Assembly: GCA_001029675.1 (NCBI GenBank)
Contig: CP011210.1
Location: 841,280 to 905,279 of the forward strand
DNA from: Candidatus Beckwithbacteria bacterium GW2011_GWC1_49_16
GTDB taxonomy: Bacteria; Patescibacteriota; Microgenomatia; UBA1400; CG1-02-47-37
Direction of reading: 5' to 3'
Length of the DNA stretch: 64,000 bases
The notes beneath the pieces were generated by a model that ran no database searches, had not been told where the DNA came from, and saw only the letters and a list, made by a program, of their open reading frames with translations. The number at the start of each line of letters is the position of its first letter. Position 1 is the first letter of the stretch. The position numbers and the translations under genes were made by a program. This document shows, in pieces, positions 9,777-43,847 of the stretch.

Positions 9777-11705
9777 TTAGACTGATATATCAGTCCTTTT
9801 TCTAAGAGCAAGACCTTCTCGAATTAATTTATTGAGAAGGTCATTAACGGTTTTATCAACTTGTTGCCATACTTCTTCGTCAATTTCATTGGTGACTCCC
9901 GGATCGTGTCTTCTAAGTGATGCTTGAAAGACTTCGGCAAAGAGTTCTTCTTGCGACTGTAGCTCTGAAAATTCAATATCTTTTTTCCTTAAAAGGGAGA
10001 AAATGTGCCTTACTTTTTGTCTATCTTCAGAGGGATAATAACTAGTTATGAGTCCCTCAACCTCTTCGGGGTTATCCTCAACCATTTTAGTGATAACAAA
10101 TGGCAAAATTACTCTATTAAAATAGACCCCTGCCGGTTCAATTTTGAACATCCTTCTTTCTGGCGCTTTAAAAAGTTCGAGGTTATTCTCGATAGTATCA
10201 AGCATTCTCTTTTCGAATTCGTTCAACCTATAACCTGACTGATCTAAGTACTGTTTATATTCGTTTTGGTAAAAATCCTCGATCGAGGCGATGGGAGTAT
10301 CACTTTCCCCTTTGGCAAAAAGTCTATAGATCATAAGGTCGTCTAAGGGTTGAGAATAATACTTACTGGAGGCACCATAAAGTCTATAAAGGAAGTAAGT
10401 TAACTTGAAAAAAAGAGATTTTTCATTGACATCATTATCAGGAAACACAAATTCTGTGGCCGGGTAGTCGGTAATACCAGCTTCATTTATATCCTTGTCG
10501 GTTCTTTCTAAAAATTCAATTATGGATTCGTTGCTAAGATCTAGAGATGCAAATTTGCCTGACGGAGTAAAAAAAGTTTTCAGGTTTCTGGTGGGACGGA
10601 AGAGCTCAAGCATTTCTTCAAGGGCGACGGTGTACTTGACGACATCAACGTCTTTCTCAAGAAAAACGATCTTTTTGTGAAGCGAGTGGCCGAATTCGTG
10701 AAGTACGTATTCTTTCCAAACGGTCGGAAATTTCCTGAAACTTTCTATATTTGCTTCTCCTATCCCCAAAACAATCTGGTTTAAAAAGTCGTCGTACTCA
10801 CCCCAAGGATTGTCGCCACCTTCAAATACACCTAAATTCGAAGCTGCTCTTTCTAAGCGATATTCTTTGAGAATTTGTTTTATTTCTTCTTTCAGTTCTT
10901 CATCTTCGGTTGCGACATAAATATTAGCCTCTTTGGGCCTTTTTGGTGCAATGGGGCCTTCCCGAAATTTGATTATTTTTCTCTGCGAGAGACTCTTAAC
11001 TTTAAGATAATTAAGAAGCGTTCCTTGATCAAGGAGTCTGTAAAGAGGACTTTGCTGACGGATCGCGCCAATAGTAGCCAACGCACTGTTGTCATCCCCG
11101 TATCGATCTTCAGAAACAGACCAAACGTCCGCCCACTGGGCGTTAATCGAGAATATCTCTTCTCCTAAAAAGGGGTCGCGAGTATCATAAACGTTAGTGA
11201 TAGATGGATTTCTCAAAGCCTCTTCAAACTTTTCAGGGACATTCCAGTATTCTTCTCTAACCATTAAAAGGGCCCAAACGGCACTGCCAACTTCGTAAAA
11301 ATCATCTTCTATCATCGTTTTGGCTCGCGGGCTTAAATTGCCTTCATTTTTAAGATCGAGATAAACCTGCTTCAGCCTTTTTAACTGGGACATTGATTTT
11401 TCCGTATTGCTTTGCCATTTTTCCTCGTCAAAGGAAATTAGTGCCAGCTGATCTTTAAATTGATAAGGGATGAGACCAAGCTCTCTTTCAATCTGGGGCA
11501 TAAATTTTTCCGGCTCAAAATCTTCTACGTTTTCAAAAAATCTTGTTTCAGACCAGTTGATTCTTTCTCTGGGGGCTTCGTGAGGAAGAAATTTTTCTAA
11601 CTTAAGTAACCAGGGTATCGCGGCCAACTTCAGAACCTCTCTTCTTTTAAGATCAACTTGTGGCCTAGGCAGGTTACCTGTTTCTAATCCGCCTGAATCT
11701 TTCAT
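9777..11705 (-). CDS. Large hypothetical protein with HExxH zinc-metallopeptidase motif
   Basis: 642 aa. HEFGHSLH motif at about residue 330. No other recognisable domain. Confidence 0.4.
   Translation of the reverse strand: MKDSGGLETGNLPRPQVDLKRREVLKLAAIPWLLKLEKFLPHEAPRERINWSETRFFENVEDFEPEKFMPQIERELGLIPYQFKDQLALISFDEEKWQSNTEKSMSQLKRLKQVYLDLKNEGNLSPRAKTMIEDDFYEVGSAVWALLMVREEYWNVPEKFEEALRNPSITNVYDTRDPFLGEEIFSINAQWADVWSVSEDRYGDDNSALATIGAIRQQSPLYRLLDQGTLLNYLKVKSLSQRKIIKFREGPIAPKRPKEANIYVATEDEELKEEIKQILKEYRLERAASNLGVFEGGDNPWGEYDDFLNQIVLGIGEANIESFRKFPTVWKEYVLHEFGHSLHKKIVFLEKDVDVVKYTVALEEMLELFRPTRNLKTFFTPSGKFASLDLSNESIIEFLERTDKDINEAGITDYPATEFVFPDNDVNEKSLFFKLTYFLYRLYGASSKYYSQPLDDLMIYRLFAKGESDTPIASIEDFYQNEYKQYLDQSGYRLNEFEKRMLDTIENNLELFKAPERRMFKIEPAGVYFNRVILPFVITKMVEDNPEEVEGLITSYYPSEDRQKVRHIFSLLRKKDIEFSELQSQEELFAEVFQASLRRHDPGVTNEIDEEVWQQVDKTVNDLLNKLIREGLALRKRTDISV
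9780..9803 (+). terminator. Intrinsic terminator downstream of tRNA-Pro
   Basis: Perfect 16-nt palindrome GACTGATATATCAGTC followed by CTTTTTCT. It overlaps the last codons of the convergent minus-strand gene. Confidence 0.55.
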
Positions 11706-21479: not shown

Positions 21480-22154
21480 TTAGCGGCAGGTGTCGGCTTT
21501 GACGAAGCCGGCGGCTTGGGCTTCTTTCTCACTGCAAAACCAAGCCTCGCCGATGTCCAGCTCGACCACGGTCCAAATGTACTGGGCGCAGCCGGGATAG
21601 TAGTATTTTTTGACTTTGGTGGATTTGTCGATGTTGGCTTTGATGTTACAGCCGGGATTGGCTAAGTTCTCCTTTTGCCAGCATTTTTGACTGAAAACGC
21701 CCAAGTTGTTTTTTCGGGCAGAGTGGTTGGCGGCTTTGAGGGCTTCCCTTTGGGAGGTCTGGTCTGAGTGGTAGCGGACCCAACCTGAAGCCAGCATAGC
21801 CTGATTCACCAGTTCGTCCCCGACATAGATTAAAGCCATGGGCCGGCCGCGCTGGTCTAAGATTTTTTCCGAGACGACCACCGACTGGCCTTCGACTAAA
21901 CTGGTGAGCAAGTCCTTGGCTTCCTGCCCGCCGCAAAACTCGAGCTCGGGGGCGTCGAGGTGGCGGAGCCTCAAGCGGACTTTGCCGTCTAGCACAATGG
22001 TGTCGCCGTCGATGACGCCTAAAACCTTGATGGCGTCGCCGGAGACTTGGGGCTCACCGAGTAAAACCAAATTTAAAATCAGTGAAGGCACGGCGACGGC
22101 AAAACCTATCCAAGGCAGAAGCTTGGTGAAGTTTAGTCTAACTCTCTTTTTCAC
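21480..22154 (-). CDS. Secreted thermonuclease (SNase-like) with Cys-rich C-terminal domain
   Basis: N-terminal TM/signal. GVIDGDTIVLDGKVRLRLRHLDAPE is the staphylococcal-nuclease motif. C-terminal YYYPGC..WFCSEKEAQAAGF..C cysteine module. Confidence 0.75.
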   Translation of the reverse strand: MKKRVRLNFTKLLPWIGFAVAVPSLILNLVLLGEPQVSGDAIKVLGVIDGDTIVLDGKVRLRLRHLDAPELEFCGGQEAKDLLTSLVEGQSVVVSEKILDQRGRPMALIYVGDELVNQAMLASGWVRYHSDQTSQREALKAANHSARKNNLGVFSQKCWQKENLANPGCNIKANIDKSTKVKKYYYPGCAQYIWTVVELDIGEAWFCSEKEAQAAGFVKADTCR

Positions 22155-24228: not shown

Positions 24229-24618
24229 CTATTCCAAATCCGCAGGCTCTTTTTTCTTGACTTTAGGCTTTTTCATGGCTGAAACCAGCTCGAGAAGATG
24301 ATCCAGTTTTTGGTTAATCGCATCAAAGTGGTCCTGGTAATTGGGTCCTGATCTTTGCGGCGTCCGACCATCCCGGTTAAAGCGGCCACCTCCGCGCGGC
24401 TGACTGTCGCCGCTGTCTTTTCTGAAACAATCGTTGCAAAAAACCGGCTTGTCCCCTGTAGGGCGAAAAGGCACTTCGCAGTCTTTGCCGCAGTTGGAAC
24501 AGACTGCCGGATGCATTTCGCGCCTGAAGTCCCCGCCGCCAAAGCGCCCGCCGCCAGGGCCGCCCCGGCCTCCCCCGCCTCGGCTGCCTCCACCTCTGCC
24601 TCGATTAAAATCTCTCAT
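24229..24618 (-). CDS. Arg/Gly-rich protein with C4 zinc ribbon
   Basis: N-terminal RGG repeats (GRGGGSRGGGGRGGPGGGRFGGG). CSNCGKDCEVPF...PVFCNDCF zinc ribbon. Putative nucleic-acid binder. Confidence 0.45.
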   Translation of the reverse strand: MRDFNRGRGGGSRGGGGRGGPGGGRFGGGDFRREMHPAVCSNCGKDCEVPFRPTGDKPVFCNDCFRKDSGDSQPRGGGRFNRDGRTPQRSGPNYQDHFDAINQKLDHLLELVSAMKKPKVKKKEPADLE

Positions 24619-24665: not shown

Positions 24666-25487
24666 TTGATGAAAAATTACTTTGCCTTTATAGACGAATC
24701 AGGAAACTCGACGCAGGAAAGATTTTTTGGTCTGGGTTTAATGCTGATGGACGACGAAATTGGTGATTTCTATGATGCTATGAAGCCTCATTATGAAAAA
24801 GCTTTTAACATTGCCAAGTCAAACAAAATAACCAGAGTTAAAGAACTAGAAAAGAATGCCGACCTGAAACAGTTGTCTAGTTTAGCAAGTAGCCATATCC
24901 ATTTTGAATTAAAGTTTAAGTATGTAAACTTTACTAATAATGTAGTTTATCGAGACTTGGTAGCCACCTATTTTAACTTCAAAGAGGTAAGGTTTTGCGC
25001 CTTGATTATTGATCGTCAAACTTATTCAAATACAACCAAAAAGGGAATTACCTTAAATCCCTGGGATGTTTATATTAATCAAGCCTCCATGCTTCTGGCA
25101 AACAACATCAGGGAAATTACCCCGTGTAATGTTTGCGTTTTAGCGGATGATTTGTCAAAGCCCACATATATCAAAAAGTCGTTTGAAAAATCTCTCAAAG
25201 ATGCGCTTGAATACCGATTGAAAAAACGAGGTATCAGCAATAGTGTGTTTGGAGTTACAAGATTGGAGTCTCATTCATCTTTACTATTGCAAGTTTCAGA
25301 CATACTTTTGGGAGCGGTAATGTATGATTATAAGAAAAAAATTGGTTTAATTTCCGAAAAGCTTAGTCAAAGACAAGAGATTGTCACTGAAAAGATTCGC
25401 AGTATTCTCAAAACTAAAAGCTTAGCTGTCAATAAAACATTTCATCAACCCAACTATTTTTCCGTTTGGGAACTGAAGAAGCCATAA
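24666..25487 (+). CDS. DUF3800 family protein
   Basis: N-terminal YFAFIDESGN motif characteristic of DUF3800. Confidence 0.5.
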   Translation: MMKNYFAFIDESGNSTQERFFGLGLMLMDDEIGDFYDAMKPHYEKAFNIAKSNKITRVKELEKNADLKQLSSLASSHIHFELKFKYVNFTNNVVYRDLVATYFNFKEVRFCALIIDRQTYSNTTKKGITLNPWDVYINQASMLLANNIREITPCNVCVLADDLSKPTYIKKSFEKSLKDALEYRLKKRGISNSVFGVTRLESHSSLLLQVSDILLGAVMYDYKKKIGLISEKLSQRQEIVTEKIRSILKTKSLAVNKTFHQPNYFSVWELKKP

Positions 25488-25588: not shown

Positions 25589-26092
25589 TTAATTTTTTAA
25601 AACAACTAAACCTTCGCAAACTTTAGCTTGCAAAAGAACCACTTGCTTTTTAATCATCTGCTTTTTAAACCTTTTTTCAATTTGCTTAAAGAAATTCTTT
25701 TGGGCTGGGCTAAGCTTATCGGTTCTTTTAACCTCGGCGAAGAAAAATTCTTTACCCTTATAAACAAAAAGGTCTGGCGGCTGGGTTTTCTTCCTTTTAT
25801 CTTCTCGGCGCAAAAACCTAAAACCGTCTTCGCCGACAAATTTTTTGACAATTTGCTGTTTTCTGGGATGGGGGTTGTAAATGTACTGCTCCACCAAAAC
25901 ATTGAAGCCCTGCCGGTAGTAATGGATGGCCCTTAACCACTCGATAAAATGCCAGCTCGGCTGGCTGACGGTCAACTGCAAATCTTTATCGTCAAACAGC
26001 TTGGGATATTTCTTTTTTAGTTCCTTTGCCAACTTACCGGTTTTCCACCGATCCCAGAGCTTTGGATCATAACTAAAGTACTCGGTTTTCAT
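25589..26092 (-). CDS. VRR-NUC domain nuclease
   Basis: PDLFVYKGKEFFFAEVKRTDKLSPAQKNFFKQI matches the VRR-NUC PD-(D/E)XK core (PDL...EVK...LSxxQ). Confidence 0.5.
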   Translation of the reverse strand: MKTEYFSYDPKLWDRWKTGKLAKELKKKYPKLFDDKDLQLTVSQPSWHFIEWLRAIHYYRQGFNVLVEQYIYNPHPRKQQIVKKFVGEDGFRFLRREDKRKKTQPPDLFVYKGKEFFFAEVKRTDKLSPAQKNFFKQIEKRFKKQMIKKQVVLLQAKVCEGLVVLKN

Positions 26093-26214
26093 ACAAGGCG
26101 TTGACTGCTTCAGTGTAGCATGGAGTCAGTTTCTTGGGGGGGGCGTTGTGATGATATAGTTTGCACGAGATATTGGTAGTTGACCCAGACGAAATAGTCG
26201 GGTATTCTCGAGGT

Positions 26215-26850
26215 ATGAAAAAAGTAACTGCCCGGCAAAAAGAGTTGTTAAAGGTTGTTTACGACTATATTAAAACAACTGGTTATCCTCCGACCATAAA
26301 GGAGATGAGAGATAGTTTGAAGGTCACCTCTAATCAGTCTGTCATCGACCTACTAGAACACCTAGAAAATAAAAAGTTGATCAAGCGACAAGAAGGTGTA
26401 GCTAGAAGCATTGTGATTTTACCTTTTGGGTACGAAGCCATTGCTAAAACAGCCTTGGCTCCATTCCTGGGCATGAGTCACGCCGGATCCCCCATTGACG
26501 CTATACAAATAGATGGCGAGTGGCAAGAGCTTTCTAACGAGGCCGCTCAGCTTAAGGATAATGTTTTTTTGCTTAAAGTTTTGGGTGACTCGATGATAAA
26601 CGCAGGCATTGATAACGGTGACGTTGTTTTAGTCAGAGTGCAAAAGGAGTTTGTGTCCGGAGACATAGTACTGGCTGAGGTTGAAGGTGAATCAACAATT
26701 AAACGGTTTATGTCTGATGACACTCCTCCATTTATTTACCTAAAGCCTGAGAATCCAAAACATAAAGTAATTCCATTTAACGAAAGAACTAAGCTTAAGG
26801 GAAAAATAATCTCTATCTTAAAAGAGGGGTCCTGGAAGTCTATTAACTAA
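26215..26850 (+). CDS. lexA: LexA-like repressor (wHTH plus S24 peptidase)
   Basis: N-terminal LexA DNA-binding domain (ARQKELLKVVYDYIKTTGYPPTIKEMRDSL). Ala-Gly cleavage site (SHAGSP). Ser/Lys dyad (VLGDSM ... TIKRF). Stop is 1 nt before the methylase start. Confidence 0.8.
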   Translation: MKKVTARQKELLKVVYDYIKTTGYPPTIKEMRDSLKVTSNQSVIDLLEHLENKKLIKRQEGVARSIVILPFGYEAIAKTALAPFLGMSHAGSPIDAIQIDGEWQELSNEAAQLKDNVFLLKVLGDSMINAGIDNGDVVLVRVQKEFVSGDIVLAEVEGESTIKRFMSDDTPPFIYLKPENPKHKVIPFNERTKLKGKIISILKEGSWKSIN

Positions 26851-26851
26851 T

Positions 26852-28807
26852 ATGCCAACTAAAAAGCCCAATAAAGCTGAAGAAATTATCAAAAAGGTTT
26901 TTAAAGAGCCGGATATTGCCCATGGCCTTAAAGAGTTTGAAGACTTGGATTTGAAAACTATCCTTTATATCACCGAGGAAGAAAAAGGCAGATATTTTGT
27001 GAAAGATCTTAAATCCGGCAAAACAAGGCTGGTTTATGACGAGACCAAAAAAAAGGGCAAGCCAGAGGAGATTGTGCGCCAGCTTTGGCTTTACAAGCTC
27101 AACAAAATCTATGGCTATCCTTTTGAAAGGATTGAAGTAGAAAAAAGTATCCATTTCGGCAGAGAGATTAGAGCAAAAGCGGCTGACATTGTGATTACCA
27201 AAACAGACAAAATCACACCCTATATTATCGTTGAAGTAAAAAAGCCTGATGAGAAAAAAGGCATAGAACAGTTAAAGAGTTATCTATCTGCCGAGGGTAG
27301 CGAAATTGGCGTTTGGTCAAACGGGATAGAAAAGGTGGTGCTCTACCGCCCTTACCCTAAAGAATATGAAGACTCTTTGAGTGATATTCCCAGAGCAGAC
27401 CAAAAGATTGACGATTTATTCGAAGTTAGGCGCACTTGGCAGGAATTAAACCCTAAGTTTGACTTTGTCCATATTGTCAGAAGCATCGAAGAGGCGGCGC
27501 TGGCTGGTTCCGGGGCGAATGTATTTGAAGAGATTTTTAAAATTCTTTATGCCAAGCTATTTGACGAAAAACTGGCCCGGGATCAACGGAAAGATCAAGA
27601 GGTGTTGTTTAGAAAATATAAAGATCCGGAAAAAACTTATGAGGTGATTAACCAACTTTTTAAAAATGCTGCTAGGCAATGGCCGGATACTTTTGAGCTG
27701 TCTGACAAGATTAGGCTTTCTCCCCAGAGACTTAATGTTTGTGTGCCATTTTTAGAAAAAGTGCGTTTGTTTGAAGTGGGCCAAGGAGAACTGGAGATTA
27801 TCGATAGCGCTTTTGAGTACTTAATTACCGAGGTTTCCAAGGGTAAAAAAGGGCAGTATTTCACCCCCCGCCACGTAATTAAGATGTGTATCAAGATTGT
27901 GAACCCCAAAACAAGCGAATATGTGATTGATCCTGCCTGTGGCTCGGGAGGGTTTCTGCTTCACACCATGTATCATGCCTGGGAAGAATTACCGACCGAA
28001 GCGGCTAAAAAAGAGTACGCCGCCAAATATTTATACGGCATTGACTTTGACGATAACATGCGCCGGATTTCCCAAGCGCTGATGCTAATTGCCGGAGACG
28101 GCAAGCACCATATTTTCAAACGCAACTCGCTTGACAGTCGTGACTGGACCGGCTATGAAGCCGAAGAAGCCAGAGTAGAGTTTAAAAAACTGCTACACAA
28201 ATTTGATAATCCCGCTGATGACAAGGAAAATCAAAAAAGCTTTAGGCATTTGGATTTCGACATCCTGCTGACAAACCCACCGTTTGCCGGAGAGAATAAG
28301 GGCGACGCCGGACTTTTAAGACAATACGAATTGGCTAAAAGCGACGGTAAGCTAAAAAACAATGTCGATCGGCATATCCTATTTATCGAGCGATCGCTAG
28401 ACGCTGTCCGCCCTGGGGGCAGACTAGCGATAGTTTTACCCCAAGGGGTGCTTAACAATACCAATATGGCCTACATTCGCCAGTGGCTGTTTGATAAGGC
28501 CATAATTTTGGCGGTGGTCGGGCTTCACGTCAACACTTTTAAACCTCACGCGGGCACGAAAACGTCCGTGCTATTTTTGCAAAAGTGGCCCGAGGACAAA
28601 AAACACCTCAAAGACTACCCTATTTTTATGGCGGTTTCCAAAAAACCCGGCAAGGACAACTCCGGCGACTATGTTTATAAAAAAGACGATAAAGGCAACT
28701 TTTCCTACGACGTTAATGGTCGCAAGGTCCTGGATCACGACCTAGACGAAATTGCGGATAAGTTTATCGAGTTTGCTAAAAAGGAGGGTTTTAGTTTTTC
28801 GACATGA
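26852..28807 (+). CDS. Restriction-modification fusion: HsdR-N-type PD-(D/E)XK nuclease domain plus N6-adenine DNA methyltransferase (Type IIB/BcgI-A-like)
   Basis: Residues about 100-180: ADIVITKTD...PYIIVEVKKPD...GIEQLKSY...GVWSNG, equivalent to the HsdR N-terminal endonuclease motifs. MTase motif I DPACGSGGFL and motif IV LLTNPPFAG. Confidence 0.8.
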   Translation: MPTKKPNKAEEIIKKVFKEPDIAHGLKEFEDLDLKTILYITEEEKGRYFVKDLKSGKTRLVYDETKKKGKPEEIVRQLWLYKLNKIYGYPFERIEVEKSIHFGREIRAKAADIVITKTDKITPYIIVEVKKPDEKKGIEQLKSYLSAEGSEIGVWSNGIEKVVLYRPYPKEYEDSLSDIPRADQKIDDLFEVRRTWQELNPKFDFVHIVRSIEEAALAGSGANVFEEIFKILYAKLFDEKLARDQRKDQEVLFRKYKDPEKTYEVINQLFKNAARQWPDTFELSDKIRLSPQRLNVCVPFLEKVRLFEVGQGELEIIDSAFEYLITEVSKGKKGQYFTPRHVIKMCIKIVNPKTSEYVIDPACGSGGFLLHTMYHAWEELPTEAAKKEYAAKYLYGIDFDDNMRRISQALMLIAGDGKHHIFKRNSLDSRDWTGYEAEEARVEFKKLLHKFDNPADDKENQKSFRHLDFDILLTNPPFAGENKGDAGLLRQYELAKSDGKLKNNVDRHILFIERSLDAVRPGGRLAIVLPQGVLNNTNMAYIRQWLFDKAIILAVVGLHVNTFKPHAGTKTSVLFLQKWPEDKKHLKDYPIFMAVSKKPGKDNSGDYVYKKDDKGNFSYDVNGRKVLDHDLDEIADKFIEFAKKEGFSFST

Positions 28808-30549
28808 GATACAAAAAATTTCTAATTCAAAATTATAAAGCCATCAAAAAAGCAACCATAGAATTGACAGACGATGGTCTTGTCTTGCTACTAGGAATAA
28901 ACGAGTCTGGAAAGACGAGTGTTCTACTGGCTATAGAGTCATTTGATCATACAAATGACCCTACCGATGAGAATCTGAAACTAAAACGGTATAAGCAGAT
29001 AAGAAATAAAAGAGAGATTACGGGTGTTAGCGAGGCCAAAATAACAGCCGAGATACAAATGGAGAAAAACGACCAAAAGAGGATCAAAGAAACGCTTTTA
29101 ACAGATGGTTTTTTAGACAAGGATCGAGAAAGAGAATTTCAAGAGCTCCTTAAGATAGTAGGTGTGATAAAGATATGCAGAAAATTTGTTTATCAAGATG
29201 CAGAGTTTAATCAAGTTGTCTATGAACTTTTGGATAACGGTAAAAAATTCTTAAGCCTCTTAAAAGGTGAAATTAATGAGGATGCAGTTTGCAAGTCTAT
29301 TCTAAAAATCTCCCCATCAGTTCAGTATTTTGAAGATTTCAAAGACCAGATACCAGAATTTATTAGTCCTGTTCCAGGCGCACAGTATTATGATTTAGAT
29401 TGGGTCAATACACTGGAAGGTCTTTTCTATCATGCGGACCCAAAGCTGTCGATATCAGCCTTTGAGGCAATCAAAGATGATGTTGCTAGAAAAACCTTAG
29501 AAAGAAGGGTAAACAACAAATTAAATAAACAATTCACTCAGCGCTGGAATAAATTAAAAGGCGTAAAAACTATTCATCAGGCAGACCTTATTTATCTAAA
29601 GACAGAACAGCTTTTTACCTTTCAAATAGTAGGGGCTGATAGGGCAACAGTTTTTTCTGTTGATGAAAGAAGTAAGGGGGCCTTGTGGTATTTCACTTTT
29701 CTTTTAAAAACTGAGTTTAGGAAACGTAAACTGAGAGCACAAACTGGAAAGACTTTATACCTAATAGATGAGCCTGGTTCCAACTTGCACTCATCGGCTC
29801 AGACAAATATGAGAGAGGATTTTAAAACTCTGGCTAGCGACTCTAATGTTATATACACAACTCACAACCAGTATCTTATTGATACAACTAACCTTTCAAG
29901 CACCTATATCACTGAAACTTCTGGAGGCGTGATCAAAGCTACTAAGTATAGCCAGTATTTACAAGGACGCAGTGTTAAGACTTCTTACTTCCAGCCACTA
30001 CTGGATGCAATTAAAGTACAACCTTTTTCGCTAGAAATTCCATGGGAAAAAACATTAATCTGTGAAGGAATATATGACTACATTGCTTACTCCATAGCTT
30101 TTGAAGATTTACTTGGTAAAAAGCTGGGTTTCTCCATTATTCCGGGAGAAGGTGCTTCTAGTCTTTCACCTCTCATATCTCTGAGTATAGCCTGGGGTTC
30201 AAAGTTTTTGGTGTTGCTCGATAGAGATGAAGAGGGGGTGGAACAAGCTGAAAGGTACTCTGGTAATTTTAAAATTTTCAAAGATAAAATCTTAACTTTA
30301 GGTGATATTGCCAAATTGGCAAAACAGAATTTTGAAGTGGAAGACCTTTTTTCTGTCCGAGATAAAATGAAACTTGCTACTTTGGCTGGAGTGTCCTTGG
30401 TCAAACCTCCAACGAAGGGGTCTTTTGACCAAATTTTGGCTACCATATTTCTCTCACAACCTTTAAGGAGAAAGGTTCAAGACAATTTGGAAAAGAGCAC
30501 AAAAAAAACATTTGAAGGAATTTACAGACATTTAAACTCTCTTTATTAA
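28804..30549 (+). CDS. OLD-family ATP-dependent endonuclease (ABC-type ATPase plus Toprim)
   Basis: Walker A LGINESGKTS, Walker B LYLIDEPGSNLH, H-loop TTHNQ. C-terminal Toprim: TLICEGIYDYIAY (catalytic Glu) and FLVLLDRDEEG (DxD). ATGA overlap with the upstream gene. Confidence 0.75.
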   Translation: MRYKKFLIQNYKAIKKATIELTDDGLVLLLGINESGKTSVLLAIESFDHTNDPTDENLKLKRYKQIRNKREITGVSEAKITAEIQMEKNDQKRIKETLLTDGFLDKDREREFQELLKIVGVIKICRKFVYQDAEFNQVVYELLDNGKKFLSLLKGEINEDAVCKSILKISPSVQYFEDFKDQIPEFISPVPGAQYYDLDWVNTLEGLFYHADPKLSISAFEAIKDDVARKTLERRVNNKLNKQFTQRWNKLKGVKTIHQADLIYLKTEQLFTFQIVGADRATVFSVDERSKGALWYFTFLLKTEFRKRKLRAQTGKTLYLIDEPGSNLHSSAQTNMREDFKTLASDSNVIYTTHNQYLIDTTNLSSTYITETSGGVIKATKYSQYLQGRSVKTSYFQPLLDAIKVQPFSLEIPWEKTLICEGIYDYIAYSIAFEDLLGKKLGFSIIPGEGASSLSPLISLSIAWGSKFLVLLDRDEEGVEQAERYSGNFKIFKDKILTLGDIAKLAKQNFEVEDLFSVRDKMKLATLAGVSLVKPPTKGSFDQILATIFLSQPLRRKVQDNLEKSTKKTFEGIYRHLNSLY

Positions 30550-30556
30550 AATTGCC

Positions 30557-31957
30557 ATGGATTTTTCAATAATCCAAAAATCTCAACTTGAAGGACCGAA
30601 TCGGCTGGATGCGGAATATTTTCAACCACAATATTTGGAATTAGAGAAGAATATTTTACAAACAGATACACTTATAAAGTGGGAAGAAATAGATGGTAAA
30701 TTCATTACAGGTCCGTTTGGTTCGGAATTTAATGTTGAAAACTACGATGAGAACAGCCAACACAGATATGTTAGGGGTAAGGATGTAAAACCCTTCTTTT
30801 TATCGACGGATGATAATGTTTACATACCTGAAAAAGATTTTGTAAGACTTAAAAAGTACTCTCTTGAAGAAGATGATATTTTAATATCTGTGGTTGGGAC
30901 TTTGGGAAATGCAACAGTTATAGACAGCTCTAACTTACCTGCCATATTCAGTAGCAAAAGCACTACATTTAGATCCAGAAATATTAATGCGTATTATTTA
31001 TTAGCATATTTAAACTCAAAATATGGTCAGGGGCTTTTGTTAAGATGCTCAAGAGGTCAGGTACAGACAGGGCTAAATATAGTCGACTTGAAAACTTTAC
31101 CTATTTACTTGCCTTCTACAGAAAAGCAAGACGCCGTGGCCTCTTTAGTTAAAAAATCTTACGATTTGCTAGGGCAATCAAAATTTAGGTATGTGGAAGC
31201 AGAAGACTTACTTTTTGAGGAGTTGGGATTGAAAGATTTTGAGGTTCCGGAAGATTTGACTTGGGTGGTAGGTTATTCGGAAGTTGAGAAGGAAAATCGT
31301 GTTGATGCCGAGTACTTTCAACCAAAGTACGAAAAAATTGTTTCAACAATAAAATCATATAGTAAGGGTTGGGACTTTTTAAAAAATTTAACAACTTTGA
31401 TTGGCCATCCTTCAAACCCTCCATATGCTCGCGCGGATTCAATTGATAAAACTTTTATCATCACTCAAAAACATCTTTCAGACTATTTTCCTTTAGATAA
31501 TTTTTGGGAAGATAAAAAAGCACTATATACAACTAATGACTTTATAAATAAAAATAAAGAATTTCTTTTAAGGGAAAACGATATTCTTCTTTATTCAGTC
31601 GGAGCCTATATAGGTAAGACAAACATCTATAATTCAAATACAAAAGCTACAATTGGAAGCTTTTTAACTTTAGTTCGGGCAAAACAAGACATTATCAACC
31701 CGTTTTACCTACTAGTTTTCTTGAATTCTGAAATTGGACACCTTCTTACACGTAGAAATTCAAAAGGATTGGCCCAGCAATACATTTACCCCTATGATAC
31801 AAAAAACATTCCAGTTCCAAAAATTGATAATGGTGTTCAAGAAGAAATTGGGAAGTTTATCAAAAAGGGTTACGAGGCGAGGAAGAAATCAAAAGAGTTA
31901 CTTGAAGAAGCTAAAAGGAAAGTTGAAGAAATGATAGACAAGGGCAGTAAAAACTAA
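30557..31957 (+). CDS. hsdS: Restriction-modification specificity subunit HsdS with two TRDs
   Basis: Two-fold internal repeat with conserved LDAEYFQPQY / VDAEYFQPKY blocks at residues about 18 and about 251. 466 aa. Confidence 0.8.
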   Translation: MDFSIIQKSQLEGPNRLDAEYFQPQYLELEKNILQTDTLIKWEEIDGKFITGPFGSEFNVENYDENSQHRYVRGKDVKPFFLSTDDNVYIPEKDFVRLKKYSLEEDDILISVVGTLGNATVIDSSNLPAIFSSKSTTFRSRNINAYYLLAYLNSKYGQGLLLRCSRGQVQTGLNIVDLKTLPIYLPSTEKQDAVASLVKKSYDLLGQSKFRYVEAEDLLFEELGLKDFEVPEDLTWVVGYSEVEKENRVDAEYFQPKYEKIVSTIKSYSKGWDFLKNLTTLIGHPSNPPYARADSIDKTFIITQKHLSDYFPLDNFWEDKKALYTTNDFINKNKEFLLRENDILLYSVGAYIGKTNIYNSNTKATIGSFLTLVRAKQDIINPFYLLVFLNSEIGHLLTRRNSKGLAQQYIYPYDTKNIPVPKIDNGVQEEIGKFIKKGYEARKKSKELLEEAKRKVEEMIDKGSKN

Positions 31958-31964
31958 TGATCTT

Positions 31965-32159
31965 ATGAATATTAAAGAACTATTAAAGGAAATGGAAAGA
32001 GTTTATGAGCCCCAAGAAATAGAATTTGATTTTACTAGGTTATTCTATAAACTTGAGAAGATTTGCCCGGAGCATGGAGTTGGAGAGAAAAATTTAGACC
32101 TACAAAGATATGCTTGTCCGGCTTGCAATAAGATTCTAAAGAAAAAGAGGCGTTTATGA
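31965..32159 (+). CDS. Small zinc-ribbon protein with basic tail
   Basis: CPEHG...CPAC, C-terminal KKKRRL. 7 nt after the hsdS stop. Confidence 0.4.
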   Translation: MNIKELLKEMERVYEPQEIEFDFTRLFYKLEKICPEHGVGEKNLDLQRYACPACNKILKKKRRL

Positions 32160-32476
32160 CCAAACAGGCTTTGCTGGAAAAACTGGAAGTAAAAGTTGGA
32201 AAAACTTTAAGGTTTATAAACGAAGTTTTATTCCCTAGAAACGACGTAAATAGAGATATCTTGGATAAATATAAAGTGGTGCTCAATAACTACTTAAAAA
32301 GTAAAAATATTGACACACTACATCAGCTGAAAGATTTACATTATAGACCAACACCTGAGGGTTCTCAGACTGACTACACTGAAGGCACGGGTTTGGCTTT
32401 TGATGGAAAACACACTACGCTTTCTGACCTGCTTATGGAAATTGAAGATTTAATTGTAATAATTAGAAAGAATTGA
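32156..32476 (+). CDS. Hypothetical protein
   Basis: 106 aa. ATGA overlap with the upstream ORF. Confidence 0.35.
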   Translation: MTKQALLEKLEVKVGKTLRFINEVLFPRNDVNRDILDKYKVVLNNYLKSKNIDTLHQLKDLHYRPTPEGSQTDYTEGTGLAFDGKHTTLSDLLMEIEDLIVIIRKN

Positions 32477-32479
32477 TAA

Positions 32480-32938
32480 ATGAGTGATAAAAAGAAAAAA
32501 GGAAGAACTGGAGAGCAAGAGGTGGTTGATTTAGTAAAATGTCCAAATTGTTTAAGTAAACTAATCTTGCTACCAGAAAGTTTTCCGATGTATGACGTGC
32601 AATGTTCGAGGTGTCTTTTTCGAGCCCAAGTGAAAACAGTGCATAGCAAGCCTAAAGCCTCAATTTTCGGCGCCGGATGGAGAATTCTTGAAAAAGTTTT
32701 AAAGGCTGGATGCTTGATGCCTCAATTAATGGTTAACTTCAAGTGGAGTTCAAGAAACGGTGGCTTAAATCAAGAAATTCGTTTTTACCCATTCATTGCT
32801 AAAGGCAATATCCAAAAATATAAATTGTCTGCAAAAGCGAGAAGGGCTAACTATTGGATGTTTAAATACGTGAAGTTAGATAAAATACCCTATCTACCCT
32901 TATATCAACAACACGATCCTCTACGGACTAATGAGTAG
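32480..32938 (+). CDS. Zinc-ribbon protein, possible degenerate PD-(D/E)XK (Hjc-like) nuclease fold
   Basis: GRTGEQEV (GxxGE-like motif I), CPNC..CSRC insertion, YDVQ and AQVK as candidate D/(E/Q)xK. Speculative. Confidence 0.3.
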   Translation: MSDKKKKGRTGEQEVVDLVKCPNCLSKLILLPESFPMYDVQCSRCLFRAQVKTVHSKPKASIFGAGWRILEKVLKAGCLMPQLMVNFKWSSRNGGLNQEIRFYPFIAKGNIQKYKLSAKARRANYWMFKYVKLDKIPYLPLYQQHDPLRTNE

Positions 32939-35562: not shown

Positions 35563-35888
35563 AATATCAACATCGGGATTTGGCCAAGGGTAAGTGGAGG
35601 AAATTGACTTTGATGGAACAGATGGCCAACGTGGGCAGTGAGGTGTCAAGAACGATTAAGTGGAAGAAAAAAGATAAAAAGTACGCCCAAATGGCTTTTT
35701 GGCGGGCTTTGGAGCTTTTGGGTTTGACCATTAACGACCCCAAAAACAAAGCTGGGCTTAAGGAAATCTGCCGGGCCAAAGAAATGCTGGTCGATTGGTA
35801 TTTTGATAATCCGCTTTATAGAAGCAGTGATGAGGAGTGGCAGAGGTATTTTAACCAATTTAACTGGGCGGCAAGAATTAAAAGGTAG
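35559..35888 (+). CDS. Hypothetical protein
   Basis: 109 aa. Confidence 0.4.
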   Translation: MKYQHRDLAKGKWRKLTLMEQMANVGSEVSRTIKWKKKDKKYAQMAFWRALELLGLTINDPKNKAGLKEICRAKEMLVDWYFDNPLYRSSDEEWQRYFNQFNWAARIKR

Positions 35889-35895
35889 GTTTTTT

Positions 35896-36579
35896 ATGTA
35901 TAAGCTCTCGCCATCTGACTTTGCTTACCTTTATGAGGAGTGCAAGCTGTGTTACTGGCTTAAAGTCAAAAAGGGCATTTACCAACCAAGCATGCCCATG
36001 CCGGGGGTGTTTTCGGCGATTAACACCAGGATCCAGGGGACTTTGATCGGCAAAAACTTGCAAAGTTTATCAGCCGACCTGCCCCAGGCGGTGGTGAAAA
36101 CCCAAGAGGGGTGGGTGGAGTCTAAGCTCGTGCCGGAGACCGGCGTTTACATCAAAGGTAAGTATGATTTGCTGGCTCAAGCTGCCGACGGGGGCAACTT
36201 TTTAGTTGACCTTAAGATCAGCCAGCCGCATGAGGATAAGATTGACAAATACAAAACCCAGCTCTCGGCCTACAAGTTTGCTTTGGAAAACCCTAAAAGC
36301 GGAGTGGGAGTTAAAATCGCCCGGATGGGATTACTCATCTTCTACCCTGACGCGGTGGCTTTTGAAAATGGCGCGGCTAGAGTCAACTTCCCCCCAAGCT
36401 GGCTGGAAATTCCCCTGGATGAGGCAGGCTTTTTGGCTTTTGCCAGAGAGGTTAACGCTTTGCTTGACGGGCCGGCGCCTGAAGAAGGGACGGGCTGTAA
36501 GTGGTGCCAATACCGGCATAAAGGTGAGGAAGAGACCCACGAAGAAGACGAGGTCAAGCAGCAGGATATTCCTTTTTGA
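35896..36579 (+). CDS. Cas4/RecB-like PD-(D/E)XK nuclease with Fe-S cysteine cluster
   Basis: N-terminal CKLC and C-terminal CKWC cysteines flank a core with DLLAQAADGGNFLVDLKIS (D...DxK-like). The real start is probably MYKLSP at 35896; the track ORF begins upstream. Confidence 0.5.
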   Translation: MYKLSPSDFAYLYEECKLCYWLKVKKGIYQPSMPMPGVFSAINTRIQGTLIGKNLQSLSADLPQAVVKTQEGWVESKLVPETGVYIKGKYDLLAQAADGGNFLVDLKISQPHEDKIDKYKTQLSAYKFALENPKSGVGVKIARMGLLIFYPDAVAFENGAARVNFPPSWLEIPLDEAGFLAFAREVNALLDGPAPEEGTGCKWCQYRHKGEEETHEEDEVKQQDIPF

Positions 36580-37647: not shown

Positions 37648-37691
37648 TATCAAAACTGTCTCTTGACATTATGATAATTTTGGCATAATAT

Positions 37692-37988
37692 ATGAAAGTA
37701 CTTTTTGATCCAAGGGTTAAAAAATTTCTTAAGAATATTTCTAAGCAAGAACGGGCTAAGGTGACTGAATACGTAGATCTTTTTAAGGAGTACGGCTTTG
37801 CTCTAGGGCAAAAGTATTTGAAAAAGGTGGATAATAAAATATGGGAGTTGCGCCCGGGCAAGATGAGAGTGTTTTTGTTCAAATACTCCGCTAACCATAT
37901 TGTTATTCACGCGATGTTTAAAAAGTCACAGAAAATTACTAAGGAAACAAAACAGTTATTAGCAAGTAGACTTAAGGAATATTTATGA
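37692..37988 (+). CDS. Type II toxin, Gp49-like/HigB (RelE/ParE superfamily)
   Basis: IWELRPGKMRVFLFKYSANHIVIHAMFKKSQKITKETKQ matches the phage Gp49-like toxin family. ATGA overlap with the downstream XRE gene. Confidence 0.65.
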   Translation: MKVLFDPRVKKFLKNISKQERAKVTEYVDLFKEYGFALGQKYLKKVDNKIWELRPGKMRVFLFKYSANHIVIHAMFKKSQKITKETKQLLASRLKEYL

Positions 37989-38284
37989 AGAAAAAAATAG
38001 ATATTAGCAAGCTGACAACCTTTGAGGAACTTAAAGTTGAATGGATGAAAGATCCTGGCTTTAGGCGTGAATATCAAAAAGTCCAGCCTCATTACCAGCT
38101 GGCGCGGCAAATTATTGGCGCTAGGTTAAAAAAGAAAATGACCCAAGCGGAACTGGCAAAAAAGGCTAAAACGGGCCAGGCGGTAATTTCGCGGCTTGAG
38201 GGGATGAACGCCCAGCCGACGATTTCGCTTTTGCAAAGAATCGCCCAGGCCTTGAACACCAAAATTGAGCTGACCATTCGCTGA
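37985..38284 (+). CDS. XRE-family HTH antitoxin (HigA-like)
   Basis: [21 protein letters not shown] helix-turn-helix. Confidence 0.65.
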
Positions 38285-38715
38285 TGGTAAAAGTAGTTAA
38301 ATCCGACCGCCAGTGGGGGGAAAAATTAACTGACGAGCAGTTTAAGGTATTGAGGCGTTGCGGAACAGAACCACCGTTTACGGGGAAATACGTTCGTCAC
38401 AAAGGCAAGGGTATGTATGTTTGCGCCGGCTGCGGAGCGAAACTGTTTGACTCGGACACCAAGTATGACTCGCAGTCGGGCTGGCCGGCTTTTTGGGACG
38501 TGGTGGATAAAAAGGCGGTCAAGCTAACAGACGACAATACTTTGGGGATGAGTCGAACCGAAGTCACTTGTGCCAATTGCGGCGGGCACCTGGGACATGT
38601 ATTCAACGACGGACCCAAGGAAAAAACGGGGTTAAGGTACTGCATCAACTCGGCGGCTTTGGATTTTCAGCCAAAGGCTGATGGGTCTTTGGCCCATGAG
38701 GGGAAGGAAAAATGA
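38284..38715 (+). CDS. msrB: Peptide methionine sulfoxide reductase MsrB
   Basis: [38 protein letters not shown] are SelR/MsrB signatures. Confidence 0.9.
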
Positions 38716-41906: not shown

Positions 41907-41922
41907 CAGGCTTCACACCCCG
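41907..41922. repeat. Half-copy of the palindromic repeat (CAGGCTTCACACCCCG)
   Basis: Direct repeat of 41358-41373. It supplies the ..GV-stop (GGGGTGTGA on the minus strand) of the 644-aa ORF. Confidence 0.6.
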
Positions 41923-43847
41923 ACAATCGCCTGTTGCTGTTTTATATCTTTGGCTTTAAAAAATTCAAGCATTCTATTCGTCCCTCCTGAGGTGCTTCTG
42001 GTATGAGCGACAAACTCCCATAAATCCTTGAGCCAGCCTCTGGCATCTTGGGTGCGTAAAAGAGACGTATAGCCAAACCCCATATTTTCCGGAAATTCTA
42101 TGTCTTCCAGAGCTTGGTTATTTTTCTGAGCCACAATCACCTTGGCAATTGGTTCTGAAATAAGATCGTTTTCATGACGTTGCAACGCTAATTCTTGTTT
42201 TTTCCTTAAATATTCTGTGCTTTCGGCAAAGGCCTGCAAGTTGGCGTCTTGCCAGTCTGATGCTTCCGGTATCTGACCAAGCGCATAGCCTTTATCAGCT
42301 AAAATTCTATCTATATGTCTGGCTGAGTCTACCTCTAACACGTCGGGCATGAAACCCATGCGCCGTTTGTGCTCCGTCTCGCTATCAAGGTCTGCTATGA
42401 AAGCGGCTACTTCCGAGTTTTGGATAGATTGACTTAAAGCTTTTCGGGTGGCCTGCCGAGAGGTTGGTTGATCGGCCGCAAATGCCTGAGGATTGAAGTC
42501 ATTACCCCCAAGCATGTCCATGTTGGGATCTTGAAGCGATTTTAACACTGCCTCCTCGTATTGTTTGACAAAAATCGGATTGGCCAGAAGCCTGGCTCTG
42601 GCAGTTTCGTCGGCAGGCAGATCGCCCAGAAAAAAAAGCAGTCGTTTTTCCAACAAACCTTGTGCCGTGGCCGCACGCTGGCTTTGATGCATTAAATCCA
42701 ATAAAGCCCAATGGGCCCGCGATTCTGGTCGATCTAGGGGTTGTTTCAAATCCTCAATCAAGGACTGTCTAACACTATCTTTGGCGGCATCCCCTTGTTT
42801 ATCTAATAAAACTCTATGCTCTATCCACTTGCTGGTTAAATAGGCAATAATAATCAACTCATGATAACTGCATTCCTGCTCTAAAAAAGTCGATAAAGAA
42901 GCTTGTGTTTGGGAAAGGCTCATGTTTTTAATGTCTTTTTCTAATTTTTGCTGCCGGTAACCTACTCTGTCTAGATCCACTAAGGCCATTTCGTAGGCTT
43001 TGGCTACTGTTTTCGGCTCCATTGTTTTAATTTTTTCTCTTAAACGACTGGCTAAATAACCGCTCGTTCCCCGCATGCGCTCGGCTGCATCTTTTTGCCT
43101 ACGTTGATCACCCTGCTTAAAGGCCGAGCGCGAAGCTTTTAAATCAACTTCGTAGTCGGCAAAATCATAATAAGTAAACATTTCGTCAGTTTGAGAGGGG
43201 TCTAGCTGGTTGATAGCAGTGTTGATTCTGGCCATTTGCCCGACTGAAAGTCTAGTCTGTTCCCATTCCCCCCATTGATCCAATTCTCCCAGGGAATACT
43301 TTACTGCCGCCATAATGTCCTCTTCTGTGGTTGGGGTTTCAGGTAAAGTTAAGTTGGTTCTGGCGGCAAAAAGGCTCAGGTTATTGCTGGCGTAGGCAAC
43401 CGTCTTTTCCAAAACTGTCGTGCTTTCATCGATGTTTCTGGCGTGATCTTCTTCTTGCTGTTTTTCATTTTCTTCTTGCTCAACGAGCTTGCGGACTAGT
43501 CCAGGATTGGAGGCCGAGTGTAAGTAATGAGTCGCTTCTTCGTCTCGGGTGCGGCGATGAATTAAGGCGTCAGAGGATAACACCTCATCGCTCTCAAAAG
43601 AAATTTCACCGACACTTTTATCTCCTTCCTTAGTCGCCCGGAATGAGCCTATTGCCATTGGAGGGCGCTGGTTGGATAAGCGGAGGGGCAAATTGGCGGA
43701 AAGGTGCTCCAGGCTTGCTGCGGAAATGCCTAAAAAGGTGGCCATGTCTTTGACGCTTTGATTTAATCTTTCGTCTGGAGAAATGGGCTGCTCCGCACCT
43801 TTTTGTTTAAAACCTGATTCGATCACTCCGGTGGGGTTTTCGGGCAT
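41913..43847 (-). CDS. Large hypothetical protein
   Basis: 644 aa, largely helical, no recognisable motif. Confidence 0.4.
   Translation of the reverse strand: MPENPTGVIESGFKQKGAEQPISPDERLNQSVKDMATFLGISAASLEHLSANLPLRLSNQRPPMAIGSFRATKEGDKSVGEISFESDEVLSSDALIHRRTRDEEATHYLHSASNPGLVRKLVEQEENEKQQEEDHARNIDESTTVLEKTVAYASNNLSLFAARTNLTLPETPTTEEDIMAAVKYSLGELDQWGEWEQTRLSVGQMARINTAINQLDPSQTDEMFTYYDFADYEVDLKASRSAFKQGDQRRQKDAAERMRGTSGYLASRLREKIKTMEPKTVAKAYEMALVDLDRVGYRQQKLEKDIKNMSLSQTQASLSTFLEQECSYHELIIIAYLTSKWIEHRVLLDKQGDAAKDSVRQSLIEDLKQPLDRPESRAHWALLDLMHQSQRAATAQGLLEKRLLFFLGDLPADETARARLLANPIFVKQYEEAVLKSLQDPNMDMLGGNDFNPQAFAADQPTSRQATRKALSQSIQNSEVAAFIADLDSETEHKRRMGFMPDVLEVDSARHIDRILADKGYALGQIPEASDWQDANLQAFAESTEYLRKKQELALQRHENDLISEPIAKVIVAQKNNQALEDIEFPENMGFGYTSLLRTQDARGWLKDLWEFVAHTRSTSGGTNRMLEFFKAKDIKQQQAIVGV

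Follow-up and report, generated by a model that had tools for sequence, protein, structure and literature searches.

A lexA-headed, predicted helicase-free restriction-modification cassette with a variable gene slot in Candidatus Beckwithbacteria bacterium GW2011_GWC1_49_16 and related bacteria of the candidate phyla radiation

The genome of Candidatus Beckwithbacteria bacterium GW2011_GWC1_49_16 (GenBank assembly GCA_001029675.1), a bacterium of the candidate phyla radiation (CPR), contains a compact block of genes predicted to form a restriction-modification (R-M) operon that is headed by a gene for a LexA repressor. The stretch analysed, hereafter the window, comprises 64 kb of contig CP011210.1 (positions 841,280 to 905,279 of the forward strand), and all coordinates of this genome are given as positions in the window. 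The block of interest (26215-32938) holds seven co-directional, tightly packed open reading frames (ORFs) on the plus strand, namely lexA, a gene for a nuclease-methyltransferase fusion protein (RM), a gene for an OLD-family nuclease, a gene for a specificity subunit (S), and three small ORFs (p64, p106 and p152); the junctions between them are, in order, a 1-nt spacer, an ATGA overlap, two spacers of 7 nt each, a second ATGA overlap and a 3-nt spacer. A first-pass annotation, made from the letters of the sequence alone, had described the same seven genes, and all seven are present in the ORF list; its junctions were correct for all gene pairs except S to p64, where it gave 5 nt and the sequence has 7 nt. 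Its domain assignments for LexA, the RM fusion, OLD and S agree with profile searches (Pfam, PADLOC and NCBIfam). Re-assemblies of the same organism, processed with independent gene callers, agree on all seven genes and place the start of lexA at the ATG at 26215, for a protein of 211 amino acids (aa). The locus is an island of low GC content (0.34-0.44, compared with 0.45-0.55 in the flanks), within which the OLD-S-3' part is lower in GC than the lexA-RM part.

The first gene (lexA, 26215-26850, plus strand) encodes a winged-helix DNA-binding domain (Pfam LexA_DNA_bind) followed by a Peptidase_S24 domain. The protein passes the NCBIfam equivalog lexA (TIGR00498; 160.7 bits against a cutoff of 110.95), and the residues required for autocleavage (S126, K163 and the A90-G91 site of cleavage) show a conservation of at least 97% among 87 relatives; the 'LexA-like repressor' of the first-pass annotation is thus a genuine LexA. 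A promoter scan identified a promoter with an embedded dyad directly upstream (26180-26208, plus strand), comprising a -35 hexamer (TTGACC, 26180-26185), the dyad CCAGACGAAATAGTCGGG (26185-26202) and a -10 hexamer (TATTCT, 26203-26208), and followed by a GAGG Shine-Dalgarno sequence and the ATG at 26215. The same arrangement, TTGACa-CCaGAatAAATAGTCGGG-TATaAT, i.e. a GAC-N6-GTC dyad placed between the -35 and -10 hexamers, recurs upstream of lexA in related loci (81 of 86 unique regions); some loci have a fully palindromic dyad (CCCGACTAAATAGTCGGG), and in divergent ones the arms co-vary (CTGACC-AAAA-GGTCAG). A dyad of this kind is what one would expect of an operator through which LexA regulates its own gene, and LexA would bind there. 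No second full copy of the operator is present in the 64-kb window, and a search of 1.3 Mb of loci (palindromes, both strands) retrieved it at lexA promoters only, apart from three degenerate matches in coding regions.

A further element was observed upstream of the promoter in many related loci. In 39 of the 86 unique loci, the 130 nt upstream of lexA contain an exact match to the DnaA-box consensus (TTATCCACA), placed 5-25 nt before the -35 hexamer, and with a relaxed pattern (TTWTNCACA) the count is 56 of the 86; this is far above chance expectation (~0.001 per locus), with examples in loci L025, L039, L020, L029 and L032. No DnaA box is present in the corresponding region of the window (26085-26180). 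The frequency of this box suggests that DnaA, or another factor, may also control the cassette in many CPR lineages.

The second gene (RM, 26852-28807, plus strand) encodes a protein of 651 aa with two Pfam domains, an N-terminal nuclease of the PD-(D/E)XK type (HSDR_N_2; aa 71-180, nt 27062-27391) and a gamma-class N6-adenine methyltransferase (N6_Mtase; aa 316-649, nt 27797-28798). PADLOC assigns it over its full length to MTase_I (PDLC03034, 1.5e-162) and also to mad2, and its best NCBIfam match is MAD2 (1e-87; 294.9 bits against a cutoff of 720). Among 68 relatives, conservation is at least 97% for the nuclease residues E97, D112 and E128-x-K130 and for the methyltransferase motifs GSGGF and NPPF. 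The closest relative of known structure is the Type IIB enzyme RM.BsaXI (PDB 8w0p), to which both regions align, and Type I HsdM proteins score lower. The first-pass annotation had read this gene as a nuclease-methyltransferase fusion in the style of a Type IIB 'A' subunit and had named a lack of the N-terminal nuclease motifs as what would speak against it; with these motifs in place and RM.BsaXI as the best solved relative, that reading holds. Many CPR lineages encode relatives at 60-80% identity. Outside the CPR, the best relatives are found on plasmids, as two-gene RM-plus-S systems or, in one case, as a single-chain fusion, and neither HsdR nor LexA is encoded beside them. A scan of viral contigs for the RM fusion gave no match, and so no sign of carriage by phages.

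The specificity subunit (S, 30557-31957, plus strand; 466 aa) contains two stretches of Pfam Methylase_S, corresponding to two target recognition domains (TRDs), as had been proposed; it is matched by the PADLOC models Specificity_I and mad5, and its best NCBIfam match is MAD5 (2.8e-42; 145.1 bits against a cutoff of 400).

No ORF of the 64-kb window is longer than 651 aa, and two further ORFs, each of about 640 aa (9777-11705 and 41913-43847, both on the minus strand) have no Pfam match at E <= 0.01; the earlier statement that the window encodes no superfamily 2 helicase/translocase of the HsdR type is therefore upheld. An ordinary Type I locus with an HsdR gene close by was considered and ruled out, since none is found in the window and no recurrent helicase lies among the ORFs around 40 related cassettes. 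An affinity with Type IIB systems is predicted because RM.BsaXI is the best relative of the fusion protein, because HsdR is absent from the window and from the neighbourhood of the non-CPR relatives, because no helicase recurs beside the cassettes, and because the catalytic residues are conserved.

Between RM and S lies the gene for the OLD-family nuclease (28804-30549, plus strand; 581 aa), with an ABC ATPase (aa 1-360) and a Toprim domain (about aa 416-515, nt 30049-30348). Pfam returns AAA_15/AAA_21 and, weakly, OLD-like_TOPRIM (20.8 against 23.2 bits); the PADLOC models matched are AriA (the best, in the ATPase domain), Old (1e-18, over aa 308-475) and mad3. In an alignment of 29 homologues, the Walker A motif (G31xNESGK37), Walker B (D322-E323) and the Toprim residues E421-G422, D473xD475 and E513 are invariant. 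An AlphaFold (AF2) model (pLDDT 83.9) gave GajA of Gabija and the Thermus scotoductus OLD as full-length top matches in Foldseek. Membership of the OLD family is predicted because of the invariant motifs, the match to the PADLOC Old model and the outcome of the fold search. The first-pass annotation had called this protein an OLD-family ATPase plus Toprim nuclease, and had noted that loss of the Toprim catalytic residues would count against this; the glutamate and the DxD motif are intact, and the call stands.

Related loci were collected with the RM fusion (38 genomic loci from many CPR lineages) and with LexA (80 metagenomic loci); all related CPR loci together number about 100. A lexA gene (50-65% identity) lies directly upstream of RM in all 37 RM-fetched loci with upstream sequence, as well as in locus L007, so that the linkage of LexA to the R-M operon, first noticed in the window, is general. 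The spacers between lexA and RM measure 1-20 nt. The S gene (29-50% identity, with a conserved N-terminus) follows downstream of RM wherever the contig reaches that far. When approached from the side of LexA, about 90% of the relatives at >=43% identity with enough downstream sequence have the RM gene directly next, and distant LexA proteins (<=34% identity) are never encoded directly before an RM gene. All-against-all clustering of flanking ORFs showed that only lexA, RM and S are conserved and that the flanks are non-syntenic.

Loci of the LexA clade that lack the RM fusion have other R-M systems behind lexA: an N6/N4 methyltransferase and a TdeIII endonuclease (L079, 5953-9023), a methyltransferase and a Tsp45I endonuclease (L098, 5989-8636), or a single ORF of 493 aa in which LexA is fused to an N6/N4 methyltransferase, followed by an HNH nuclease and an ABC ATPase (L091, 1004-6788); in L094 (1859-3731), only a remnant of S follows lexA. 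By these gene contexts, the lexA of this CPR clade would head an R-M operon essentially always. Four loci (L008, L021, L026 and L035), with the cassette at 70-78% identity, are from metagenome-assembled genomes labelled 'uncultured Gammaproteobacteria'; these labels probably reflect mis-binning or mislabelling of CPR contigs, and transfer between a CPR epibiont and its host could be an alternative explanation.

The region between RM and S was compared in 60 dereplicated loci in which it could be read. The gap ranges from 12 to 2443 nt and is empty in six of the 60 loci; the filled slots hold 75 co-directional ORFs that fall into 50 sequence clusters. The families represented include DUF3800 (the PADLOC candidate PDC-M04A), NYN, MazF/PemK, trypsin-like proteases, DUF6602, DUF2806, Schlafen/AlbA_2, NucC-like, LmuA-like and PD-(D/E)XK proteins and a second, unrelated ABC ATPase, and many slot proteins are without any match. 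Judged by the families that could be assigned, the cargo of the slot is predicted to consist of typical defence effectors. Apart from the window, L007 is the sole locus with OLD nested in the slot (65% identical protein); the remaining OLD homologues (38-56% identity) stand alone, away from any RM or S gene, and no helicase partner of such stand-alone homologues is encoded in L001-L004. The neighbourhood survey thus returned lexA-RM-(variable slot)-S as the conserved order, and OLD as a conserved component of the cassette is ruled out. Because OLD occupies the slot in two loci only and its homologues stand alone, it is predicted to be embedded cargo that can be exchanged, and the R-M enzyme would not include it as a subunit.

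In locus L065 (8570-10285), the slot holds a different ABC ATPase of 571 aa (AAA_21; best PADLOC match mad3, with a faint C-terminal Toprim-like match); this protein differs from OLD, which makes at least two independent captures of ATPase cargo. In L037, a cut-down duplicate of the 5' end of S (10171-10257, and 11069 onward) flanks a DUF3800 cargo gene (10261-10959), a direct repeat that resembles a scar left when cargo was inserted by recombination, and in many loci the last codons of RM hold the Shine-Dalgarno sequence of the next gene, whichever gene this is. Because of this duplicate and this placement of the Shine-Dalgarno sequence, exchange of cargo by recombination between the conserved 3' end of RM and the conserved 5' end of S is suggested.

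Three small ORFs follow S in the window. The first (p64, 31965-32159, plus strand; 64 aa) contains the motif CPEH...CPAC with three Cys and one His and may be a zinc ribbon; the second (p106, 32156-32476, plus strand; 106 aa) has no Cys and belongs to a rare family of small proteins, with 22 matches at E <= 0.001 among 1.8 billion representatives, of which about 20 are full-length small proteins. One homologue of p106 lies amid small ORFs near a TraG/TrwB-like gene, i.e. in a non-R-M context. Counterparts of p64 and p106 were found in none of the fetched loci, even with permissive tblastn. The third (p152, 32480-32938, plus strand; 152 aa) is a stand-alone DpnI-like PD-(D/E)XK domain with a Cys4 zinc site. 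The first-pass annotation had taken all three for zinc-ribbon ORFs, which is plausible for p64 and does not apply to p106, for want of Cys, or to p152, in which the Cys4 site is part of a DpnI-like nuclease domain.

The Pfam match of p152 to DpnI (25.5 bits) lies just below the gathering score (26.7). The protein has 761 homologues, most of them with PF06044, that form a large CPR family of about 145 aa, and a profile of this family retrieved DpnI (4esj) as the sole protein from the PDB; the AF2 model (pLDDT 87.9) likewise has DpnI (4kyw) as top Foldseek match (TM 0.68). p152 shares with DpnI, an m6A-dependent Type IIM enzyme, the PD-(D/E)XK catalytic domain, with its catalytic Asp and Lys, and the Cys4 zinc site; unlike DpnI, it lacks the C-terminal winged helix and the Glu of the ExK motif, the invariants of the alignment being D39...Q50-x-K52, with Gln in place of Glu. 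From these differences and the sub-threshold Pfam score, p152 would be classed as DpnI-like only and not as a member of the DpnI family. Homologues of p152 are encoded directly 3' of S in L126 and L127, and elsewhere in the genome in L128; by this recurrence, p152 is a predicted 3' accessory of the cassette. In L128 (3768-7223), the p152-type gene lies outside any LexA-RM-S cassette, beside DUF3800, NYN and SNase genes; the presence of slot-cargo families among these neighbours suggests a shared pool of mobile defence genes.

Further genes of the nuclease or toxin type are predicted around the operon. A DUF3800 gene (PDC-M04A; 24666-25487, plus strand; Pfam and PADLOC) shares the low-GC island with the operon; DUF3800 is the commonest cargo of the RM-S slot in other cassettes (L029, L036, L037, L044, L052, L084 and L108), and in the window its copy stands just upstream of the operon. 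An ORF of 167 aa that is divergent from lexA in the same island (25589-26092, minus strand) is weakly VRR-NUC-like (Pfam VRR_NUC, E 4.4e-4, below the gathering score) and is not conserved beside other cassettes. A homologue of SNase, a Gly/Arg-rich treble-clef zinc-finger protein, PD-(D/E)XK genes (PDDEXK_1, Cas4-like) and a Gp49/HTH toxin-antitoxin pair are found around the island (21480-22154 and 24229-24618, minus strand; 35803-36579 and ~37690-38285, plus strand).

Taken as a whole, the unit is probably a lexA-headed, helicase-free, Type IIB-like R-M cassette that is widespread in the CPR and that offers, between RM and S, a hypervariable slot for defence and toxin genes; the slot of the window would hold a Class-1-like OLD nuclease, and the DpnI-like protein and the two other small ORFs would be appended after S. 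The cassette shares with the Type IIB enzymes BsaXI and BcgI the combination of a nuclease and a gamma-class N6-adenine methyltransferase in one chain, a separate S subunit with two TRDs, and the absence of a helicase/translocase. It is unlike them in that the RM fusion has 651 aa, compared with 916 aa for the RM subunit of BsaXI (similarity of ~105 bits), in that RM and S of the window are parted by an embedded gene, and in that lexA stands in front. The cassette is accordingly placed with Type IIB R-M systems by its predicted architecture, and its enzyme would cut on both sides of a bipartite site. With Type I systems it shares an HsdM-type gamma-class N6-adenine methyltransferase and a two-TRD S subunit; as HsdR is absent, it is not, by gene content, a Type I system.

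In the mechanism that we propose, LexA would bind the GAC-N6-GTC dyad within the promoter and hold the whole polycistron at low expression. This low expression would suffice for complexes of the (RM)2S type, as formed by BsaXI RM (PMC11997821), to methylate the bipartite sites of the host, and the same complexes would use the N-terminal nuclease domains of RM to cut incoming DNA that is unmethylated, with no ATP-driven translocation, as do BsaXI and BcgI. Upon DNA breaks or replication stress, RecA filaments would form and LexA would cleave itself at A90-G91 by means of S126 and K163, as in an SOS response; the operon would be derepressed, R-M would be boosted, and the embedded cargo would be switched on as a second line of defence. 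The cargo of the window would be OLD, as an autonomous, ATP-dependent Toprim nuclease whose trigger would be this derepression. A wider view, which we put forward tentatively and hold to be somewhat less probable than its opposite, is that CPR LexA was recruited, or is mainly used, as a DNA-damage-sensing controller of R-M operons, that the cassette is an integron-like capture platform, that any toxin or nuclease gene entering the slot becomes an SOS-triggered, second-line effector of abortive infection, and that breaks made by restriction feed back via RecA and LexA to release it.

Regulation of this kind has partial parallels. In C-protein R-M systems, too, the operon starts with a small gene for an autoregulatory repressor that sets the level of R-M expression, as LexA would do here; the difference is that LexA has an intact autocleavage site, so that its input would be RecA filaments and not the concentration of a C-protein. 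CapH/CapP and BrxR/CapW are DNA-damage-responsive regulators of defence systems with which the LexA cassette may be compared. A LexA-repressed toxin adjoining hsd genes is exemplified by symE (SymE/LexA) in E. coli (R-M regulation review).

Several points weigh against this interpretation. The TM-scores of the OLD model in Foldseek are low (~0.4), owing to domain orientation. A single-sequence search of OLD against the PDB gave no match, and a profile search gave matches at the level of the ABC ATPase only, in the N-terminus; by sequence and profile searches, the C-terminus appears tied only weakly to solved OLD structures. The translational coupling of OLD to RM and S could indicate a physical association with the R-M complex, and not autonomy. 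The 1.3 Mb searched for further operators covers only the flanks of the loci, and lexA may simply be the SOS regulator of the cell, behind which R-M genes were inserted.

The coupling of OLD to RM and S is also the starting point of the best of the competing explanations, in which OLD is a guard in the manner of PrrC, latent on the RM-S complex, that fires when an anti-restriction protein of a phage (a DNA mimic like Ocr or Stp) inhibits the complex. We regard this as unlikely, though worth weighing: OLD is nested between RM and S by an ATGA overlap and a 7-nt spacer, the same nesting is found in L007, its ATPase domain has AriA as best PADLOC match, and AriA belongs to PARIS, which senses Ocr, and PrrC provides a precedent; yet the slot accommodates some 50 unrelated families without a shared docking domain, it is empty in six of 60 loci, and homologues of OLD at 38-56% identity occur in contexts without RM or S.

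A less probable explanation, and in our view an improbable one, is that lexA is the SOS regulator of the cell, that its 3' flank is an insertion hotspot for R-M and defence genes, and that the co-location of R-M genes with it is without regulatory meaning. The differing types of R-M system after lexA in L079, L098 and L091, the non-syntenic flanks, the lower GC content of the OLD-S-3' part and the recombination scar in L037 would all fit such a hotspot; on the other side, the spacers of 1-20 nt between lexA and RM, together with a single conserved promoter before lexA, make co-transcription nearly unavoidable, lexA and RM move together into unrelated genomic contexts, and L091 even encodes LexA and a methyltransferase as one fusion ORF.

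The idea that OLD stands in for HsdR, so that a Type I-like enzyme would obtain its ATP-driven nuclease from OLD and only recognition and methylation from RM and S, had been one of two raised in the first-pass annotation. The absence of HsdR, the ATPase and nuclease activities that OLD is predicted to supply and its predicted co-transcription with RM and S speak for it, but it is largely refuted by the comparative data and is now very improbable: the RM fusion keeps a strongly conserved PD-(D/E)XK nuclease of its own and resembles the self-sufficient BsaXI, 58 of the 60 slot-readable relatives have LexA, RM and S without OLD, their slots being empty or filled from some 50 unrelated families, and homologues of OLD stand alone elsewhere. 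The other idea raised there, a comparison with nested PrrC and RloC, has proved the better of the two, and the analogy to PrrC holds.

Hints from PADLOC and NCBIfam also pointed to the methylation-associated defence system (MADS), in which the genes mad1-mad5 encode, in order, a regulator, an N6 methyltransferase, an ABC ATPase with a C-terminal (OLD-like) Toprim domain, in parts mad4, and S (Maestri et al., bioRxiv 10.1101/2023.03.30.534895), and of which the published MacSyFinder model lists MAD6 (kinase), MAD7 (DptG-like) and MAD8 (HerA/DptH-like) as mandatory (bioRxiv 10.1101/2023.03.30.534895). Membership in MADS is ruled out, as mad4 and mad6-8 are absent from the window, with no PADLOC match to mad6-8 among the proteins scanned, and the MAD2 and MAD5 scores lie below their cutoffs. 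A reduced, minimal subtype (regulator, MAD2, MAD3 and MAD5) has the same gene order (mad1-2-3-(4)-5), MAD2 (1e-87) and MAD5 (2.8e-42) as the best NCBIfam matches of RM and S, and PADLOC matches to mad2, mad3 and mad5 in its favour, but is hardly credible in view of scores far under the equivalog cutoffs (295 against 720 and 145 against 400 bits), the absence of mad4 (DUF4276) and of the mandatory mad6-8 in a window with no ORF above 651 aa, a regulator that is a LexA and not an HTH protein, and an ATPase-Toprim gene that has no NCBIfam MAD3 match and is optional cargo, not conserved in the relatives.

We therefore return to the lexA-headed, Type IIB-like cassette with embedded cargo. The statement of the first-pass annotation that the arrangement is not a described defence architecture does not hold, since the order of methyltransferase, ABC-ATPase/Toprim and S genes is that of mad2-mad3-(mad4)-mad5 in MADS and the embedding of defence genes in R-M loci is established. 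Known examples are PrrC in EcoprrI, the Rlo genes (RloF) in Type I loci of Campylobacter, and TgvAB in VPI-2 of Vibrio cholerae; the 'guilt by embedding' HEC/PDC candidates of Payne et al. include ABC-ATPase/Toprim proteins (HEC-01, HEC-04), NYN (HEC-09) and DUF3800 (PDC-M04A). As in these loci, an autonomous defence gene is set between R-M subunit genes; unlike in these, the host of the window is a helicase-free, Type IIB-like system and not a Type I, BREX or Hma system, and the slot in the CPR loci has a fixed position (from the 3' end of RM to the 5' end of S), and is filled in about 90% of the loci from some 50 families, and the whole unit would be under LexA control.

The cargo of the window is itself of a known kind. 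It shares with Class 1 OLDs (P2 Old, Thermus scotoductus OLD) the N-terminal ABC ATPase and the C-terminal Toprim domain with its Glu and DxD, as well as the occurrence of stand-alone homologues, and Class 1 OLDs are reportedly single stand-alone genes (Schiltz et al. are said to describe them so); it is unlike them in being nested in an R-M operon and in a sequence similarity to solved OLDs that is limited to the N-terminus of the ATPase. GajA of Gabija is among the top fold matches of the model, but the locus is not a Gabija system, as there is no adjacent UvrD-like GajB and the neighbours are RM and S.

In the literature searched, neither R-M operons led by lexA nor the present CPR cassette and its fixed slot are described, and an earlier report is possible in work on the SOS response of patescibacteria; the R-M regulation review and a 2026 preprint on CPR methyltransferases make no mention of lexA-headed R-M operons. 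The position of lexA at the head of R-M operons throughout the CPR looks new. An OLD gene within an R-M locus follows, by its gene context, the known principle of embedded defence genes, and the novelty would lie in the LexA-controlled, Type IIB-like chassis with its hypervariable slot. The 'new defence architecture' of the first-pass annotation is to be corrected in this sense, with OLD as interchangeable cargo and not a new R-M motor, and the linkage to LexA that the annotation had seen is, of all features of the locus, the most general and the most interesting.

CPR bacteria are mostly without CRISPR and are thought to rely on R-M systems, and to our knowledge the regulation and diversification of their defence are barely known. 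Here, one three-gene cassette, with RM fusions at 60-80% identity, recurs in many CPR lineages with lexA and a conserved operator in front, which suggests that expression of R-M may be wired to a DNA-damage signal; this is counter-intuitive, as restriction itself causes damage. The fixed slot between RM and S, with its some 50 families, many of them without annotation, amounts to a 'guilt-by-embedding' catalogue in which candidate defence effectors of an uncultivated radiation are gathered.

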